Virus record (IMG/VR): IMGVR_UViG_3300037424_000564
Location: 64,001 to 128,000 of that record
Reading direction: 5' to 3' (one strand)
DNA from: a virus
Lineage: Duplodnaviria; Caudoviricetes
Length of the DNA stretch: 64,000 nt
Part shown: in pieces, positions 3,701-48,054 of the stretch
Layout: every line of letters starts with the position of its first letter
Position numbering within the stretch: position 1 is the stretch's first letter
Program-made: the position numbers and the translations under genes
Notes under the pieces: model-generated
Told to the model about the DNA's origin: nothing
Databases searched by the model: none
What the model saw: only the letters and a program-made list of their open reading frames with translations

Positions 3701-4135
3701 TTAAAACGAAGAAACTAGTGCATCTAGAATAGGGATTTGTTTAGGATTAATAATATCATACGCTTCGTCAATATCAACCCATTTATAATCATCAATTTCT
3801 TTAATCATAAGTCCAGACCCAATAGGGTATTCACACTCATTAGAAAAACATTCTTCTGGGTCAACATCCATATTGATTCCGTATGCACAAACCATTTTAT
3901 TTGGATTTTGTTGTACTTGCCCTAGATATTTGTAATATTGTCTATTTCTTGTACGAAGAGTTGTTCCAGTTTCCTCTTCAAACTCTCGACATGCAGCATC
4001 TAATTTATTCTCCCCTTCTTCTAGTTCACCTTTAGGGAATGACCAGAAAGGAAACACATTAGTTGAATGTGCTAGAAAAACATTAAGTTGGTTATTAACA
4101 AATTTATAACAAATAATCCCGGCTGAAAATTTCAT
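3701..4135 (-). CDS. Nudix hydrolase
   Basis: Nudix box PKGELEEGENKLDAACREFEEETG. Confidence 0.9.
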   Translation of the reverse strand: MKFSAGIICYKFVNNQLNVFLAHSTNVFPFWSFPKGELEEGENKLDAACREFEEETGTTLRTRNRQYYKYLGQVQQNPNKMVCAYGINMDVDPEECFSNECEYPIGSGLMIKEIDDYKWVDIDEAYDIINPKQIPILDALVSSF

Positions 4136-4776
4136 TTTTTCTCCATTAAAGTTTTTCTATTATGATTTGGGTTTTTTAGTTCACCACGTCTACGTTTGGC
4201 CCATACCTCTTTCATTTTTAGACTTCTATCTTTTTTTTGTTCTTTTGTTAGTTCTAATCCAATCAATTTATTTCTAATTTTAATTTTAACTTCTTCTGAT
4301 CGTGGTATACCAAACGAATGATGGTTTTCTCCTGATGTTTTTTCTTTAAAGGATTGGATACCTTTATCACTTCTACACCATTTATCCCCAAACATTGGAT
4401 TTTTATCTCCCAATCTAGCTTGTCTAAGTATTTCTTTGGTTTTAGCTGAATGTTTTTTTCCTAGAAAAGCTTTAACCCCTAATACTCCTTGACCACCATA
4501 AGTAATATTTGTTAAATTATCTTTACCAATTTCTAAAATAATTTCTCTTTCTTTTAGCAATGATTCTGAATGTGATAAATTACAATAGAGGTATGTAATA
4601 ATAGGCATTAATCCATCATTAAAAATATCCTTTATCAATCTATTTTTTTCAGTATCTTTTGCTAATTGATTAGGATATAAATGTTGTTTTGCTCTATATT
4701 TTTTACCTTTACCTATATAAAAAATCTTACTATCTCTGGGGTCAATGTACGCATACACATAAAAAATATTATTCAT
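4132..4776 (-). CDS. GIY-YIG homing endonuclease with NUMOD3-like repeats
   Basis: FYVYAYIDPRDSKIFYIGKG, HSAKTKEIL-type repeats; TATAAATA late promoter at 4803-4796. Confidence 0.85.
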   Translation of the reverse strand: MNNIFYVYAYIDPRDSKIFYIGKGKKYRAKQHLYPNQLAKDTEKNRLIKDIFNDGLMPIITYLYCNLSHSESLLKEREIILEIGKDNLTNITYGGQGVLGVKAFLGKKHSAKTKEILRQARLGDKNPMFGDKWCRSDKGIQSFKEKTSGENHHSFGIPRSEEVKIKIRNKLIGLELTKEQKKDRSLKMKEVWAKRRRGELKNPNHNRKTLMEKK

Positions 4777-38287: not shown

Positions 38288-39670
38288 TTACTGAATACCT
38301 TTTTCAGTGTTTACTATGACTTCTTCAAAAGTGATAGTTCTAACAATAGGAATATTATTATAATCATCAAGTTTGAATACTTCTTTGAGAGCAATAACTT
38401 CATTACCTACTTCATCTAGTCTACAAGTAGTAAGACCTTCGTTAGTTTCAATGAGAGTTAATCTACCTTTTTTGCTATTTTTACCGGGAGCAATTTTGAA
38501 CACATCTTGCCATTCTCCATCAATAAGAATAGCACAACATTTCATTGCAAATCCAAAGGTATCACGGTTAGAATGTTGTAGTAGTGCGCCACCCATACCA
38601 AATCCAACATTATCAGCAGCAAATCCTTTCCATTTGAGAAGAGATAGGATTTCTTCAATAGAATCACGATTGATTCCATCGCCTTGAATAACTCTAACAC
38701 AACTAGGAAGAACTTTATATCCTTTGCTATTAATAGTGAAACCAAAATGTTTCATTAGGATTTCAACACAACGAGCAACGGTTTGTGCTGGATCACCAGA
38801 GTCAGGACGAATGACCAGAGTGCCGCCCATATTAATTACTTCTTCTTTTAGTTCAGTTCCCCACATTTCACAGGCATTGAAAATATTGTAACTATCAGAT
38901 ACACATGCTACAATATTCCCCGGCCCACCATATTGCTGAAGCATATTGCGATATGCTTCGACTTCTTTATCCTGACCCCAAGATGTGATTGTGCTGTGTT
39001 CAGATGCTGGAATGCTAAAACCAGCCATAGCACAATTATAGTATTCATTAGCATACAGAATACCTTCAACAGTATCACTTCCCATGAAGTTGACAAGGTG
39101 AGCAGATCCACCAATTCCAGCAGATTCACTAGAACTTACGCCCCTTGCACCAAAATCATGAAGTTTGAACATAACTTGATCTTGATCATCAGAAGTCAGT
39201 TCCAGATACTTCTTGATTGTTTGCTTACAATCATAGGAAATAGTGGCAACAGAAGAAGGATACCAAATAGCACGTAGTAGTGCAGTTTCAAGGAAACTAG
39301 CAATCCAGAAACATTTTGGATCTGTACATTCGATAGTAAGGAGGACATTACTATTACGAAGAACAGTACCTTCTGGTACAGCTTTGATAATTACTGGCAT
39401 AAAGCCATTATATGTTTTAAGAATATATTCCCATCCTTCACGATTGAAGGGTTCCCCATGACTAGCAAAAAAGATAGCGGCTTGATCAATATCTTTTTGC
39501 GTGATGGGGTTTAGAAGATGGTCTTTGATGAAAATCTGAAGACCATAAAATAGTAGATGACTTCCGGCTCTTGCCTCAATATAAGACATCATTCCTTGGG
39601 TCTTAGGAGGGTATTGTTTCCAGTGACTACTTTTATAGCTATCACTTTTGAGAATTAGATTGTTGACCAT
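38288..39670 (-). CDS. nadV: nicotinamide phosphoribosyltransferase
   Basis: DSYKSSH, LHDFGARG, IPASEHS, ACVSDSY, IRPDSGDP, QGDG, FGMGG. Confidence 0.95.
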   Translation of the reverse strand: MVNNLILKSDSYKSSHWKQYPPKTQGMMSYIEARAGSHLLFYGLQIFIKDHLLNPITQKDIDQAAIFFASHGEPFNREGWEYILKTYNGFMPVIIKAVPEGTVLRNSNVLLTIECTDPKCFWIASFLETALLRAIWYPSSVATISYDCKQTIKKYLELTSDDQDQVMFKLHDFGARGVSSSESAGIGGSAHLVNFMGSDTVEGILYANEYYNCAMAGFSIPASEHSTITSWGQDKEVEAYRNMLQQYGGPGNIVACVSDSYNIFNACEMWGTELKEEVINMGGTLVIRPDSGDPAQTVARCVEILMKHFGFTINSKGYKVLPSCVRVIQGDGINRDSIEEILSLLKWKGFAADNVGFGMGGALLQHSNRDTFGFAMKCCAILIDGEWQDVFKIAPGKNSKKGRLTLIETNEGLTTCRLDEVGNEVIALKEVFKLDDYNNIPIVRTITFEEVIVNTEKGIQ

Positions 39671-39814
39671 TTAAATGCACTCCTTTTTATTGTCTTCTTC
39701 AACAATTAGGCTAAGTTGGCCGCAAGCAGCACCTGCATTGATTTCAGCCTCAGTAGCAATAGCAGTAGCAAAATCGAAACCAGCTTCTTTGAGTTGTTCT
39801 TGTACAGTTTTCAT
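39671..39814 (-). CDS. 47-aa peptide equal to the C-terminal helix-strand-AACGQL segment of RlmN/Cfr enzymes
   Basis: Translated by hand: MKTVQEQLKEAGFDFATAIATEAEINAGAACGQLSLIVEEDNKKECI; RBS GAAAGGAAGTGAT; TAA directly followed by the nadV ATG. Confidence 0.85.
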   Translation of the reverse strand: MKTVQEQLKEAGFDFATAIATEAEINAGAACGQLSLIVEEDNKKECI

Positions 39815-39888: not shown

Positions 39889-40083
39889 TCAATTATGGTC
39901 TACTACCTTAATGAAGATAGTTTTAGTGAAGGACTGTTGACCGTTAGGATCAACATATCTTGGTTGATGAATCGCAGTAAACTCATATGTTCCATCAACC
40001 AAAGCAACGAATTCGACAATAAGATCCCGGTTATCAACCCTAAATTGATCACATACCATCTGAGCAACAACTGAGTTTTTCAT
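39889..40083 (-). CDS. small hypothetical protein
   Basis: 64 aa, AAGGAG RBS, TTGACA-17-TATTCT promoter at about 40100-40132. Confidence 0.65.
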   Translation of the reverse strand: MKNSVVAQMVCDQFRVDNRDLIVEFVALVDGTYEFTAIHQPRYVDPNGQQSFTKTIFIKVVDHN

Positions 40084-40149
40084 ATATCTCCTTGTTTAAA
40101 TAGAATACGATAATTTTAGTTTTATGTCAATTAAAAAATTCAATTCCAT

Positions 40150-41061
40150 TTATATGATAATTTCTCCACCAAATCCAGTTCGAAGGTAGGAACCATCAAA
40201 CACCAAGTTTGATTCATTTCCTTTAGCAAAATCACTATTATATCTAGCATAAATTTTAACTAAACTGTCACCATCTTTAGGATTGAAGACATAGTTTCTG
40301 CATTCACAACTACCTTTATTATTCCATGTTTGGTAGTGTAAGATATTTTCTTTATTGGATAAATCAATATCACGAAAGTCAATATGATTATCAGTACAAT
40401 AATCATTAACTTTCATTAGTGTAACAAATCCAACATCACGAACACCGACAGATGCAGACCATTCCAGATATTTACACATTTCTTCATAAGAGTCAATATA
40501 ACCTTTAACTAAATTACAAGAAAAATGAATTTTGTGTTTATTGTGAAGATTATTCAATTCATTATTTGTGGGAATATTAATGAACGAATTGATGCCAAAT
40601 ATTTCTGAATTTTTACGTTCATTATAATGATGTCGGGACAAAGCAACACTATCAATTTCATCCATATCCATTAATTCACTAATATTGTAACCATTAGTAT
40701 TAGCCACAATAAATGATTTTGGACTAACTTCTTTTGTTTTGATTAGGATAGATTTGAAGTTATCAATATCCAGAGAAAGTTCACCACCAGTAAAACTGAT
40801 TTTATTGATGATAATTTTTTTCTGTAATTCTGACATAACATAATAAAATTTATGCAAATCAAATTCTGTATTTTCCTGACTACAAAACTCACAGAATTTA
40901 CATTTCGCCTGACACTTTTCAGTTACTTTTACGTAGATATTTACATAAGGATCTTTGACATGCCATAGATCATTGCAAAGATTCTTCTGACAATGATAAT
41001 CCTTTGTCATGATTGTTTTATTAAAAATATCGATTTTCATAATAGTCCTCTTAATTAACAA
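40150..41061 (-). CDS. radical SAM protein
   Basis: CQAKCKFC, SFTGGE, NTNG, ALSRHH; C-terminal CECR. Confidence 0.85.
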   Translation of the reverse strand: MLIKRTIMKIDIFNKTIMTKDYHCQKNLCNDLWHVKDPYVNIYVKVTEKCQAKCKFCEFCSQENTEFDLHKFYYVMSELQKKIIINKISFTGGELSLDIDNFKSILIKTKEVSPKSFIVANTNGYNISELMDMDEIDSVALSRHHYNERKNSEIFGINSFINIPTNNELNNLHNKHKIHFSCNLVKGYIDSYEEMCKYLEWSASVGVRDVGFVTLMKVNDYCTDNHIDFRDIDLSNKENILHYQTWNNKGSCECRNYVFNPKDGDSLVKIYARYNSDFAKGNESNLVFDGSYLRTGFGGEIII

Positions 41062-41342
41062 CCACCAGTTCTACTTCCAGAATATCCTCTAGAACAAGGA
41101 TCTACGGTAGTAGGTTTGTTCTTGGTTTTTACATTTGATGCATCTTGCTCTACTTTGACGTGAAGAACAATATCAAACATAGCAAATACAATATTTAGAG
41201 CATCTTTAGAAATAATTGTAGACATTTCAGTAGATGTACAGATATCCATAAAAAGATCATTGATTTTTGTTGTCGGAACACCAGAGGCAACAATTTTCTT
41301 ACGCATACCGATTAGGAATAGAACTTCATCTTTAAGTGCCAT
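41055..41342 (-). CDS. small protein with Cys/Gly/Ser-rich C-terminal tail (RiPP-precursor-like)
   Basis: 95 aa ending TVDPCSRGYSGSRTGGC; overlaps the start of the radical SAM gene. Confidence 0.6.
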   Translation of the reverse strand: MALKDEVLFLIGMRKKIVASGVPTTKINDLFMDICTSTEMSTIISKDALNIVFAMFDIVLHVKVEQDASNVKTKNKPTTVDPCSRGYSGSRTGGC

Positions 41343-41429: not shown

Positions 41430-41711
41430 TCATAATAACTCTTCTTTCTTTTTAAAATATTGTTCCTTTGTAAGAATTATACAATTCCACCCTTTATAAG
41501 ATTCTCTTAATCCCTTTGCTACATTTTTTAAAAATTGTGGTGTTTTAATTCCTAATTCTTTACATTTTTTAACAAAATCACCACAAAAAATTATTTCTTC
41601 ACCAGTAGGAGTTATTATAATATAATAACCTACATTATTAGCACTTTCACCTATAATCCCTTTATGCGAATTGCTCATTTTTTTCTTTACATCATCTGAT
41701 AACTTTTTCAA
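41430..41711 (-). pseudogene. homing endonuclease remnant (NUMOD3-like DNA-binding part only)
   Basis: KKKMSNSHKG NUMOD3-like motif and YIIITPTGEEI...YKGW C-terminal module; TTG start, no catalytic domain. Confidence 0.55.
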
Positions 41712-41713
41712 TA

Positions 41714-42496
41714 TCAGACTAGATTATTACCTTTTATAATCCCTTCACCTAAGTTATTAGATTCACTAATAGAATTTAAATTTATAGGGCTAATTTTTAT
41801 GAAAAAATAATCAGGATCAAAATATTTACGAAGTTTATTTATATCGAAATCACAGTAATCAACGAGAGTTAAATTAACTGTAGTTTTGAGATTACTCTTA
41901 GTACGAATCTGGCCGAGTTCTTCAATACTCATGAGATTATTGATAGGAATCAATTCATGCCGCCGATCTTCATCAAGAGAGTGAAGACTGATTTGAAGGG
42001 TAATATTTCCTTCAATCCAAGAGAAGTCAGAATCACGAATACCAACAGTAGAAACGTAGTGGTGAACATTAGGATATGCTTCTGAAAGTTGATTAATAGC
42101 ATATTTTACATTTTCGATATTTAGAAATGGTTCACCCATTCGTGTCCAGTTAATTTTGAATTCTTCCGAATATGAAGGATGAATATGAGAGTTTTTATCA
42201 ACAACAAAAAAAACTTGATCAAACATTTCATTTGGAGTAAGATTTCTCCAACCTTTCATTTGACCAGTTGCACAGAATTTGCAGCCAACAGGACAACCAC
42301 TCATAGTCGAAACACCAACCATCCAACGTTCAGACCGACTTCCGATATCTTTGGAGTAAAGAGCATTAGTATTATTAGGGCAGTTCTTAGTATAGAATGG
42401 AAGAAATGTATCAGTAGTTTCAATCAACATCCCATCTTCAAGTTGAAGACAATGAACAGATCCATTAGTAAATTTACGATTACGAAGTTCTTTCAT
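41714..42496 (-). CDS. RlmN/Cfr-like radical SAM methylase lacking its C-terminal segment
   Basis: IET, VSTMSGCPVGCKFCATG, RNLTPNEMFDQV, RMGEPFLN, VSTVG, LQISLHS, IKISPIN; stops before the AACGQL motif. Confidence 0.85.
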   Translation of the reverse strand: MKELRNRKFTNGSVHCLQLEDGMLIETTDTFLPFYTKNCPNNTNALYSKDIGSRSERWMVGVSTMSGCPVGCKFCATGQMKGWRNLTPNEMFDQVFFVVDKNSHIHPSYSEEFKINWTRMGEPFLNIENVKYAINQLSEAYPNVHHYVSTVGIRDSDFSWIEGNITLQISLHSLDEDRRHELIPINNLMSIEELGQIRTKSNLKTTVNLTLVDYCDFDINKLRKYFDPDYFFIKISPINLNSISESNNLGEGIIKGNNLV

Positions 42497-42792: not shown

Positions 42793-42847
42793 AAATCCTC
42801 CTGTCGTTAGGTGAGTTAACTATACGACAGGAGGATTTAATTGTCAA
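42792..42847 (-). promoter_or_regulatory. sigma70-type promoter with spacer/RBS inverted repeat
   Basis: TTGACA-17 nt-TATAGT; 16-bp inverted repeat 42792-42807/42824-42839. Confidence 0.85.
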
Positions 42848-44291: not shown

Positions 44292-45332
44292 TTAAATACC
44301 CAACATATCCTTAATGATAAAATAATGGTCTTCAAACATATTTTCAGCAGTTAGTTCAGAAATAGGCAACCATACTGCTTTAGCCGCATCATCAGATCCT
44401 TTGATACGTGCTTTGATATTACTAGGAGGCAATTCAATTAAAAAAGCATGAGTTAGAATTCTTCCTCTTGTAGATCTATATGGATCGTCATACACACCTT
44501 TTTTTGTGATATATTTGCGAAGAATTGAAACTGGAATTTTGATCTTAGTTTCTTCATTCAATTCTCGAAGCATTCCATCTTCAAGTTGTTCATCTGTATC
44601 TAGAAATCCACCCGGCATTGCCCAAAGACCTTTTCCCGGTACATTCTTTCGTTGAATTAGAAGAATATGATCATTTTGAGTAACAATAGCATCAGTAGTT
44701 ATAAAATTACAAGGATATGGTGCAGATTCCCAAGCTTTCTTGTATTTTTTAATATAATCATGTTCTTCTTTGAGAATAAGCCAATTAGAATCAAGCATTC
44801 TAAATCTTCCCATAGTTTCTAACACATTTATTGGAACAACGCCATATAATTCAAAAAGTCTATCATGGGAATCAAAAAGAATTTCTCTGATATCAGTTGA
44901 GTGAATATGATTAATGGTTTCATCGAACCCAACTGGTTCAATATAATCCCAATCTTTGAAAAAATCAATATAAAAACTAGTTTTATCATTTTTGTTTCCA
45001 GTGATGCAAATAGAAACATCATCAGGATCATTACCATCTTGTTGAATCATAGAATCAACAATGCTTTGAGTATTCATTACCCAACGCGAATTCTCTTTAA
45101 TATCTATAAGAGATCCAAACATAATTCTATCGGAATTATATGTTTTACTAATCATTGCTTCACGATAATTAATATCGAATGGATTTTTTGAACTTAAAGG
45201 TCTATTTGCAGATCCAAATAGAACAATAACTTTATCTGCTACATTCAACAGATTATCAATGATTGCTTTGTGATTATTGTGAAACCCCTGAAATCGTCCG
45301 ATAATTATACCATATTGATATTTCTTTGACAT
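44292..45332 (-). CDS. nadM: bifunctional NMN adenylyltransferase / Nudix hydrolase
   Basis: IGRFQGFHNNH (HxxH), KNPF, STDIR, Nudix box GGFLDTDEQLEDGMLRELNEETK, GSDDA. Confidence 0.93.
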   Translation of the reverse strand: MSKKYQYGIIIGRFQGFHNNHKAIIDNLLNVADKVIVLFGSANRPLSSKNPFDINYREAMISKTYNSDRIMFGSLIDIKENSRWVMNTQSIVDSMIQQDGNDPDDVSICITGNKNDKTSFYIDFFKDWDYIEPVGFDETINHIHSTDIREILFDSHDRLFELYGVVPINVLETMGRFRMLDSNWLILKEEHDYIKKYKKAWESAPYPCNFITTDAIVTQNDHILLIQRKNVPGKGLWAMPGGFLDTDEQLEDGMLRELNEETKIKIPVSILRKYITKKGVYDDPYRSTRGRILTHAFLIELPPSNIKARIKGSDDAAKAVWLPISELTAENMFEDHYFIIKDMLGI

Positions 45333-46914: not shown

Positions 46915-48054
46915 CTACTTATCAAATTTTTTAAATGCAAAATCATATAGTTTGTTATGTTTAAGAACCAAGGAAGTCCAGATTAATCCACCTTCTTCAA
47001 TGATTCCAGTTTTTTTAGCAGTAAAAAATACATCACGGAATTCAAATTGGAAGGAGTTCAATTTGATAGCAAACTCTTTCTGGTCTTCGATGAAGACAAC
47101 ACCATCCCAAACTTTAACAAATCGTTCTCGTACTTCCGAAAGGATATTAACCATCTGGCTAATTTTTGGTTCAAGTTCAGGATAGTAAGTAAGAATTTCA
47201 TCAGTTTCACCATCAAGAATGAAAGGAAGAAGATTTTTCATGGTGAATCCAGACTCTCCACGCATCCTATGGAGAGATAGATATTTCTTATTTTTTACCT
47301 TAATTCTATTAAGGTTTTTGTCTACTAAAACTAGACCTTCGATGGTTGGATTATTCAATTCCAGATCTTCGATATGTTGAATGACTTCATCGATAGATTT
47401 GAAGTTATAATATTTTGGATGTCCTGCGCCATATACTCCATATTTTCGTTGTTCATTATTTGGTTTATCGTAATAATTCAGACAGAACAATCTTGGAATT
47501 TTATAATCAGTAACAATTTTATTATAAGGAGAACATAGTTCATATGTATATGAAAATTCTTTGCGTAGATTTTCTAGGACAAAATTATTTTCATCATCAT
47601 GGGAATAACTATCTTTAAAAAATTCTGCCATACAATCAAAAGTTTTCCAGAAAAGTTCTTTCCAAGAAAAATCACAGTTTTCCATCAGTTGATCACCGAA
47701 AGAACCTCTAGTTGCCATATGCCATTCACCTGCATAGAAGAACATATTACAAAGAGAACCATCAACCTTTTCAAGAGCATAAAAATTACTCCAATCAAAG
47801 TCTTTTTGGAGATTTTCAGCTTCACCAAGATTGAAGAAACGATCAAATGAACGAGCAACAATGTTCCATGTGTTTAATTCTAAAATTAAACCTCTACAAC
47901 ATATAGTAATTGGATTAATTTTTGGGCTATCAATTTGACAATAATTTAAAATAACTAATGGAAGTGTTGAATGATAGCATAGCTTAATTCCAAATTCTTT
48001 ATTTAAATCTTCAAGGGTTTTCCCATTGTGTAAATATTCTTGAACAGCTATCAT
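46915..48054 (-). CDS. RNA ligase 1 (T4 RnlA-like)
   Basis: CRGLILE, ARSFDRFFN, motif I EKVDGSL, ATRG, YELCSP, EGLVL, KVKNKKY. Confidence 0.9.
   Translation of the reverse strand: MIAVQEYLHNGKTLEDLNKEFGIKLCYHSTLPLVILNYCQIDSPKINPITICCRGLILELNTWNIVARSFDRFFNLGEAENLQKDFDWSNFYALEKVDGSLCNMFFYAGEWHMATRGSFGDQLMENCDFSWKELFWKTFDCMAEFFKDSYSHDDENNFVLENLRKEFSYTYELCSPYNKIVTDYKIPRLFCLNYYDKPNNEQRKYGVYGAGHPKYYNFKSIDEVIQHIEDLELNNPTIEGLVLVDKNLNRIKVKNKKYLSLHRMRGESGFTMKNLLPFILDGETDEILTYYPELEPKISQMVNILSEVRERFVKVWDGVVFIEDQKEFAIKLNSFQFEFRDVFFTAKKTGIIEEGGLIWTSLVLKHNKLYDFAFKKFDK

Follow-up and report, generated by a model that had tools for sequence, protein, structure and literature searches.

The 64,000-nucleotide (nt) stretch of DNA analysed here, referred to as the window, covers positions 64,001 to 128,000 of the IMG/VR record IMGVR_UViG_3300037424_000564 and comes from a 205-kb genome of a T4-like phage. 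It encodes a radical S-adenosylmethionine (SAM) protein of the RlmN/Cfr type, which we call the core, and, after a gap of 1.9 kb, a 47-amino acid (aa) acidic peptide homologous to the C-terminus of RlmN. The gap holds a 93-aa open reading frame (ORF), a 95-aa ORF, a gene for a second radical SAM protein of 303 aa and a 64-aa ORF, and the core-peptide pair is flanked by genes for an NMNAT-Nudix protein and for nicotinamide phosphoribosyltransferase (NAMPT; Table 1). The original prediction, made from the letters of this stretch, held that the core lacks the cysteine with which RlmN resolves its covalent intermediate, and that the outcome could be a permanent cross-link between the peptide and an RNA, DNA or peptide target. 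We found that the missing cysteine is a property of a whole phage family, and we propose that core and peptide form a two-subunit enzyme in which the peptide would carry the methyl group in trans.

Table 1. Features of the core-peptide locus (positions in the window)
Feature	Position	Strand	Basis
NAMPT (nicotinamide phosphoribosyltransferase)	38288..39670	minus	Pfam NAPRTase 3.2e-56, NAMPT_N 5e-22
47-aa acidic peptide, homologue of the last ~35 RlmN residues including Cys355	39671..39814	minus	family, hhalign, complex model
Cys31 codon of the peptide, equivalent of RlmN Cys355 (methyl carrier)	39722..39724	minus	profile alignment
64-aa ORF between second radical SAM gene and peptide	39889..40083	minus	not conserved in relatives
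Promoter-like TTGACA-17-TATTCT, upstream of 64-aa ORF and peptide gene	40102..40130	minus	consensus scan only
Second radical SAM enzyme, 303 aa, not RlmN-like	40150..41061	minus	weak similarity to HxsC, viperin, YydG, MoaA
95-aa ORF with Cys/Gly/Ser tail (...GSRTGGC), just upstream of second radical SAM gene	41055..41342	minus	ORF call
93-aa ORF directly after core	41430..41711	minus	weak NUMOD3 match, E 0.019, below cut-off
Radical SAM core, RlmN/Cfr type, 260 aa	41714..42496	minus	ORF call, hidden Markov model, fold
CX3CX2C (Cys68/Cys72/Cys75), binds [4Fe-4S] cluster	42272..42295	minus	invariant in family
Gly61 codon, RlmN Cys118 position	42314..42316	minus	alignment; Gly in 89/89 loci
Promoter-like TTGACA-17-TATAGT, upstream of 94-aa ORF and core	42819..42847	minus	consensus scan only
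NMNAT-Nudix (NadR/NatV-like), 346 aa, 1.8 kb upstream of core	44292..45332	minus	homology

Both sequence models and predicted structure place the core close to RlmN and Cfr. The NCBIfam model of RlmN (TIGR00048) matched it with an E-value of 1.2e-20, at 73.8 bits against a cut-off of 290, and the Cfr models TIGR04432 and NF000424 gave 54.2 and 59.4 bits against cut-offs of 550 and 530, respectively, so that none of these three curated family cut-offs was reached; the general Pfam Radical_SAM model scored 31.2 bits for a cut-off of 29.5. In a phmmer search of solved structures, residues 56-199 aligned with RlmN and Cfr. An AlphaFold2 model built with 27 relatives in the alignment had a pLDDT (predicted local distance difference test) of 90.6, and RlmN and Cfr structures made up the whole of its 11 best PDB fold matches in Foldseek (E 1.3e-12 to 1.3e-6). 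The model thus predicts an RlmN-type fold, that is, a partial TIM barrel with an N-terminal β extension. Residues 1-55 are modelled as three β-strands, the helical (HhH-like) domain with which RlmN recognizes RNA is missing, and matches to TIGR00048 begin only at model position 102 of 355. In all, the core retains the motifs that bind the cluster and SAM as well as the MGEP methionine, and it is devoid of the N-terminal helical domain, of an equivalent of Cys118 and of the C-terminal methyl-carrier loop.

The cysteines of the cluster motif are invariant in all 28 full-length representatives of clusters at 50% identity, and they are the only conserved cysteine columns of the core; at no other column does cysteine exceed 39% of these representatives. 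Seven residues ahead of the first of them, within residues 58-75 (WMVGVSTMSGCPVGCKFC), stands Gly61, which in the phmmer alignments faces the Cys118-equivalent cysteine of 6fz6 and the alanine of the E. coli C118A mutant 4pl1. The two observations on which the original prediction was built, a glycine at this position and the lack of a Cys118 equivalent, were thus confirmed. To follow this residue across homologues, as had been suggested, we drew on a scan of IMG/VR that found 235 relatives; 80 of these and nine other loci were analysed, which together make up 25 lineages (clusters at 85% identity). Glycine occupied the position in all 89 phage loci, and cysteine in none, and it was likewise invariant in the 28 representatives. 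The codons were GGA in 46 loci, GGT in 21, GGC in 20 and GGG in 2, and in 41 of the 89 a single base change would give a cysteine codon. Since all four glycine codons are in use, the residue has been held while the codon drifted, and we regard the glycine as a family trait under purifying selection. Asparagine, histidine or aspartate, and never cysteine, was found in a few close relatives (P0059, P0069, P0074). In a maximum-likelihood tree, every protein with cysteine at the position fell into one clade of 34 members (support 100/97), most of which carry a fused GGCGQ or AACGQ tail, and all glycine forms lay outside it. We also considered whether another cysteine of the core could fill the site of Cys118, and rejected the idea for C16, C39 and C215, none of which is conserved.

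Two further large branches of RlmN-like proteins (P0120-P0190, labelled 'CDAG', and a group similar to P0098) also have no cysteine at this position, where they carry Ile, Met, Thr, Asn, Ala or Gly, which indicates that the loss of Cys118 is widespread among uncharacterised relatives. A fused AACGQ tail is kept in few of these proteins (P0142, P0154, P0179). The locus of P0098 is cellular, being adjoined by genes for pyruvate kinase and GreA. An adjacent carrier peptide was not found for P0075 or for this distant cellular glycine branch, and P0098 itself has no carrier cysteine either. Outside phages, the pairing is therefore not a general rule.

The second component, the 47-aa peptide, consists of a short helix, a docking β-strand (FDFATAIAT) and a loop (EINAGAACGQL), with Cys31 at the place of the methyl-carrying cysteine of RlmN. 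Its family numbers at least 44 sequence clusters, with lengths of 38-79 aa and with G12, A18, A20, T21, E24, A29, A30, C31, G32 and Q33 invariant, and several members had been annotated as RlmN by JGI (Joint Genome Institute). Cys31 is its one conserved cysteine; a second, C46, is unique to the present phage. Searching PDB sequences with the peptide gave no match, and the homology came from profile comparison: in hhalign, the peptide profile matched the C-terminal 31 residues of a canonical RlmN-like protein with an E-value of 1.7e-4, the AACGQL loop of the peptide being two residues longer. The prediction that the equivalent of Cys355 resides on a separate peptide therefore holds for a conserved family. 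The carrier modules have a mean net charge of -5.8 and were negative in 66 of 66 peptides, whereas canonical fused forms average +1.4. Beyond the docking strand and the cysteine loop, the family alignment revealed no conserved feature. The peptide gene has its own Shine-Dalgarno sequence (GGAAGTGA), and its stop directly abuts the start of NAMPT (TAAATG).

Core and peptide genes travel together. A small ORF with the A-A-C-G-Q motif lies downstream of the glycine core on the same strand in the window, and the peptide ORF was found in this arrangement in 88 of the 89 loci. The commonest and minimal form, core plus peptide alone, was seen in 18 of the 25 lineages. In the crAss-like phage Kehishuvirus tikkala, whose core is 64% identical to that of the window, the peptide gene begins 2 nt past the core stop, in a different frame. 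The pair is also present in Moorella phage MTATph1, Vibrio phage D479, and Pectobacterium phage Wc4 and other Ounavirinae. Overall, the family occurs in crAss-like phages of the gut, in T4-like phages, in Ounavirinae and in jumbo phages. The nearest relative on a long contig (L011; core 68% and peptide 81% identical) has one unrelated 66-aa ORF between the two genes. Unrelated genes separate them in several lineages, with gaps of 233 nt to 5.6 kb, the latter in L017, the IMG/VR counterpart of locus L009. The frames in Kehishuvirus, the intervening genes and the ribosome-binding site of the peptide rule out that the split is an artefact of a frameshift, read-through or an intron, and we regard it as real.

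Natural fusions argue strongly for a joint function of peptide and core. The peptide module is fused to the N-terminus of the core in P0058, found in two samples, and to its C-terminus in P0109 and P0145. The metagenomic protein P0074 (695 aa) joins a carrier module of the AACGN variant, a core with aspartate at the Cys118 position and a second radical SAM domain. As a Rosetta stone, P0074 also connects the split enzyme with the radical SAM genes that accompany it. In a predicted complex, residues 4-21 of the peptide lie along the final β-strand of the core (residues 217-237), suggesting that the peptide docks by strand complementation and completes the sheet of the core. The complex score (ipSAE) was 0.75, compared with 0.27 for the best control; for reference, 51 of 78 solved complexes and 2 of 108 mismatched pairs attained that mark. 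The runs shared at least 64% of contacts, and the pLDDT of the partner was 56. We read this model as pointing to a likeness of architecture, not to binding.

RlmN is a dual-specificity C2-methyltransferase of A2503 in 23S rRNA and A37 in tRNA (PDB 3RFA, 5HR7, 6FZ6; TIGR00048), and Cfr methylates C8 of the same A2503 (PDB 9P0P; TIGR04432, NF000424). To our knowledge, they are the only characterised class-A radical SAM methylases. As in RlmN, the phage core has the fold (Foldseek E 1e-12 to 1e-8, TM-score 0.6-0.7), the CX3CX2C, MGEP, STxG and SxH motifs and the N-terminal β extension, and the AACGQL methyl-carrier loop with its preceding strand is there too, on the peptide. Unlike in RlmN, this strand and loop are a separate gene product, strongly acidic and with the longer loop, and the core has glycine for Cys118, is without the helical RNA-binding domain, reaches 74 bits against the cut-off of 290 and falls outside the cysteine clade. 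With Cfr, the phage pair shares the class-A architecture, the ping-pong logic of two SAM molecules and significant sequence and fold matches. In contrast, the two cysteines of Cfr (C105, C338) belong to a single chain, the phage core gives 54-59 bits against cut-offs of 530-550, and there is no sign of a role in antibiotic resistance. The phage-encoded protein of Stenotrophomonas phage ANB28 (319 aa; 29-31% identity) has the same core and a short N-terminus; unlike the split pair, proteins of this type are single chains with cysteine at the Cys118 position and a C-terminal GGCGQL, and belong to the cysteine clade. By four criteria, namely no carrier cysteine in cis, no Cys118, no N-terminal domain and scores below the cut-offs, the phage pair stands outside the RlmN/Cfr family.

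Taken as a whole, we consider it about an even chance that the two genes encode a two-subunit radical SAM enzyme derived from RlmN/Cfr, with the 47-aa peptide as its trans-acting methyl(ene) carrier. In the first steps, the pair would work like RlmN and Cfr. One SAM would methylate Cys31 of the peptide; a second would be cleaved to a 5'-deoxyadenosyl radical, which would take a hydrogen from the S-methyl group; and the resulting thiomethylene radical would add to the substrate at an sp2 carbon and so form the adduct peptide-S-CH2-substrate. As there is no Cys118, no other conserved cysteine in the core and a single conserved cysteine in the peptide, resolution of the canonical RlmN type is unavailable, and the last step would have to differ from that of RlmN. 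We favour release of a methylated product, either through another base or through an exchangeable, and possibly consumable, peptide. The main role now assigned to Cys118 is that of a general base, which by deprotonating C2 or C8 triggers radical fragmentation (PMC9692996); another base could accordingly substitute for it, and the aspartate and histidine variants at the position fit with this.

As for the substrate, gene association and charge make an adenine nucleotide linked to NAD (nicotinamide adenine dinucleotide) salvage, or another nucleotide, more likely than 23S rRNA; a tRNA is possible. The RNA or DNA target of the original prediction seems doubtful, given the acidic module, the lack of an N-terminal RNA-binding domain and a neighbourhood that points to nucleotide and NAD metabolism. 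The NAMPT and NMNAT-Nudix proteins encoded on either side of the pair are the first and second enzymes, respectively, of a NAD salvage route of the NARP2 type. Among the NMNAT-Nudix homologues, those of L011 and L013 have PF01467 (CTP_transf_like) and PF00293 (NUDIX), and that of L016 has PF00293 only. One or both genes were found within 10 kb of the pair in 8-9 of the 25 lineages. In a branch whose core is 37% identical to that of the window, the order is NMNAT-Nudix, core, peptide and NAMPT with nothing between, and a Macro domain and a NAD kinase are encoded in addition at one further locus. Only some 1.1% of phages have the NARP2 pathway (10.1101/2024.02.11.579819). The MoaA/viperin-like radical SAM genes and the gene for a small methyltransferase that lie between core and peptide in some lineages also speak for a nucleotide.

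Several points weigh against the enzyme proposed here. The RlmN mutants C118A and C118S do not turn over, and their Cys355-CH2-adenine adduct persists on RNA (PMC9692996), so the glycine could equally mean a dead-end adduct. The substrate is deduced from the neighbourhood and charge only, and 16-17 of the 25 lineages have no linkage to NAD salvage, which may be inherited synteny. The RNA ligase and Tpt1 genes near the pair and the 26 tRNA genes of the phage fit an RNA target equally. Finally, as RlmN structures are known, the complex score may in part be the memory the model has of the RlmN fold.

A permanent adduct is what the original prediction had proposed, as a tagging or stapling reaction. 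In this reading, the 47-aa peptide would end up joined by a methylene bridge to RNA, DNA, protein or a nucleotide; the conjugate itself would be the functional product, and the peptide would be consumed stoichiometrically. The conserved glycine without any other conserved cysteine agrees with this idea, as does the persistent cross-link in RlmN mutants (PMC9692996). The E. coli RlmN C118A protein cross-linked to tRNA (PDB 5HR6/5HR7), which like the phage core has no thiol at position 118, provides a mechanistic precedent. However, that protein is an engineered, dead-end, single-chain mutant, whereas the phage family is natural and conserved and its carrier is detachable; a natural, conserved and selected family presumably has a productive outcome. 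Detachment of a 5-kDa carrier would free the core to turn over and leave a small tag behind, and both the strong ribosome-binding site of the peptide gene and the two tandem carrier modules in one small ORF of the Vibrio-phage lineage would suit a consumable. On the other hand, fusions such as P0058 (in two samples), P0074 and P0109/P0145 would be single-use enzymes tethered to their product. If Cys118 acts as a base, aspartate, histidine or some other residue could replace it; the peptide has no conserved feature that a downstream reader of the tag could recognise; and with its net charge near -6 the peptide is poorly suited to docking on nucleic acid. Mainly because of the natural fusions, we think a permanent tag less likely than release, and rather improbable in itself. 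We are similarly doubtful of its specific form, in which phages would weld a disposable acidic peptide through a methylene bridge to an adenine-containing target such as a NAD-related nucleotide, an immune signalling nucleotide or a tRNA.

In a third explanation, which we consider unlikely, the peptide would be a scaffold or substrate rather than a subunit, akin to the precursor of a RiPP (ribosomally synthesized and post-translationally modified peptide) or to a pearlin-type carrier, and the extra radical SAM enzymes and a 148-aa methyltransferase would elaborate a Cys-linked intermediate that is perhaps then released. Extra radical SAM genes stand exactly between core and peptide in 7 of the 25 lineages; when neighbours are counted too, they are of at least three kinds and occur in 7-8 lineages. 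The peptide gene is the last one in the operons with extra genes, two-module peptides exist, and in P0074 carrier and core are joined to a second radical SAM domain, all of which would suit a scaffold. However, core and peptide are alone in 18 of the 25 lineages, the extra genes come and go among relatives with at least 85% identity and are thus optional, and the conserved part of the peptide is the RlmN strand and loop, which is predicted to complete the sheet of the core. An ordinary RNA methylase that is merely split, making 2- or 8-methyladenosine at A37 of phage or host tRNA or at A2503 of 23S rRNA with a host thiol or a water-mediated base in place of Cys118, would accord with RlmN and Cfr as the nearest homologues and folds, with the 26 tRNA genes of the phage, with the RNA ligase and Tpt1 genes that often adjoin and with the location of the fused two-cysteine relative of phage ANB28 inside a tRNA gene cluster, but we find it very unlikely given the lost helical domain, a tail that is acidic instead of neutral to basic, scores far under the RlmN and Cfr cut-offs and a position outside the cysteine-containing RlmN/Cfr clade.

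If the two-subunit enzyme is correct, a large natural family (at least 235 IMG/VR relatives) shows that RlmN/Cfr chemistry has been repurposed. The way in which RlmN and Cfr use their two cysteines is textbook chemistry, and Cfr matters in the clinic as a resistance enzyme. The family offers a direct natural test of whether Cys118 serves as a base or as a disulfide partner, and may reveal a new way to resolve a thiomethylene adduct or a new covalent product of peptide with nucleotide or RNA. It recurs in NARP2-type loci, and next to other radical SAM genes and genes for RNA repair, which suggests that it serves phage counter-defence or nucleotide metabolism. Should the peptide instead be welded to its target, this would be a natural peptide-nucleotide or peptide-RNA conjugation without known counterpart, possibly acting in counter-defence alongside NAD reconstitution. 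In the full-text literature, which we searched for RlmN-like enzymes of phages or viruses or in split form, we found the split family nowhere described, and PHROGs has no annotated family for core or peptide.

With respect to the genes in the gap, the 93-aa ORF is part of a variable insert and has no counterpart in L011 or L009; its sequence suggests that it may be what is left of the DNA-binding region of a homing endonuclease, which could have carried the insert into the gap. For the 95-aa protein, which had been put forward as a possible source of the resolving cysteine, we found no match to protein families, PHROGs included, and the tested ORFs of L009, L011, L016, L024 and L068 contained no homologue. 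Together with its radical SAM neighbour, it is missing from Kehishuvirus, the Moorella phage, L011, L013 and 18 of the 25 lineages, and the suggestion was not borne out. Homologues of the 303-aa radical SAM protein sit in the same slot in L017/L009 (41% identity), L020 and L068. The 64-aa ORF was rejected as a conserved third component, since the ORFs that fill its slot in L011 and L015 share no homology with it.

A different set, a MoaA/viperin-like radical SAM gene with one for the 148-aa class I methyltransferase, was found in many crAss-like gut phages and in L016 and L017. In L024 (10001-12074) and about 33 similar IMG/VR loci on human-gut crAss-like contigs, these form a compact four-gene operon with overlapping gene ends, in the order core, MoaA/viperin-like radical SAM (255 aa), methyltransferase and carrier peptide; contigs closely related to L024 are without the two middle genes. 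The 303-aa radical SAM gene is accompanied by small upstream proteins that end in cysteine (window 40150-41342, minus strand; L009 1673-3187; L068 10790-12509), of which L009 has two paralogous ones of 81-82 aa, ending in ...NGRC and ...STTC. This combination looks like a separate RiPP-like module that has landed repeatedly in the gap. As to the two promoter-like sites of Table 1, the consensus scan found such sites to be no more numerous in the region than in shuffled sequence.

RNA ligase genes of the PHA02142/RNA_ligase type recur near the pair and the NAD-salvage genes, in the window at 46915-48054 (minus strand). Further RNA ligase or Tpt1 sites are at 3929-4492 and 7790-8875 of L009 and at 6153-8548 of L015, and one relative has a Tpt1-type RNA 2'-phosphotransferase near the pair. 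These surroundings look like an accessory or counter-defence island. ARAGORN identified 26 tRNA genes in the genome (G000:C1 51322-71315 and 202687-202759, outside the window), 24 of them in one 10-kb cluster; one, reported as tRNA-Pyl, has a CUA anticodon and is a possible amber suppressor.

Two minor observations concern the components themselves. The small ORF of Vibrio phage D479 (L004 3800-4081) contains two complete modules of strand plus AACGQM, and this tandem duplication of the carrier is conserved in two distinct sequences (P0205, P0206). In addition, the core homologues P0056 (601 aa) and P0117, and also P0115 and P0137, contain inteins (Hint and LAGLIDADG), the insertion point being the third cysteine of CX3CX2C (C-x-F-C, then L/F-V/L-P).

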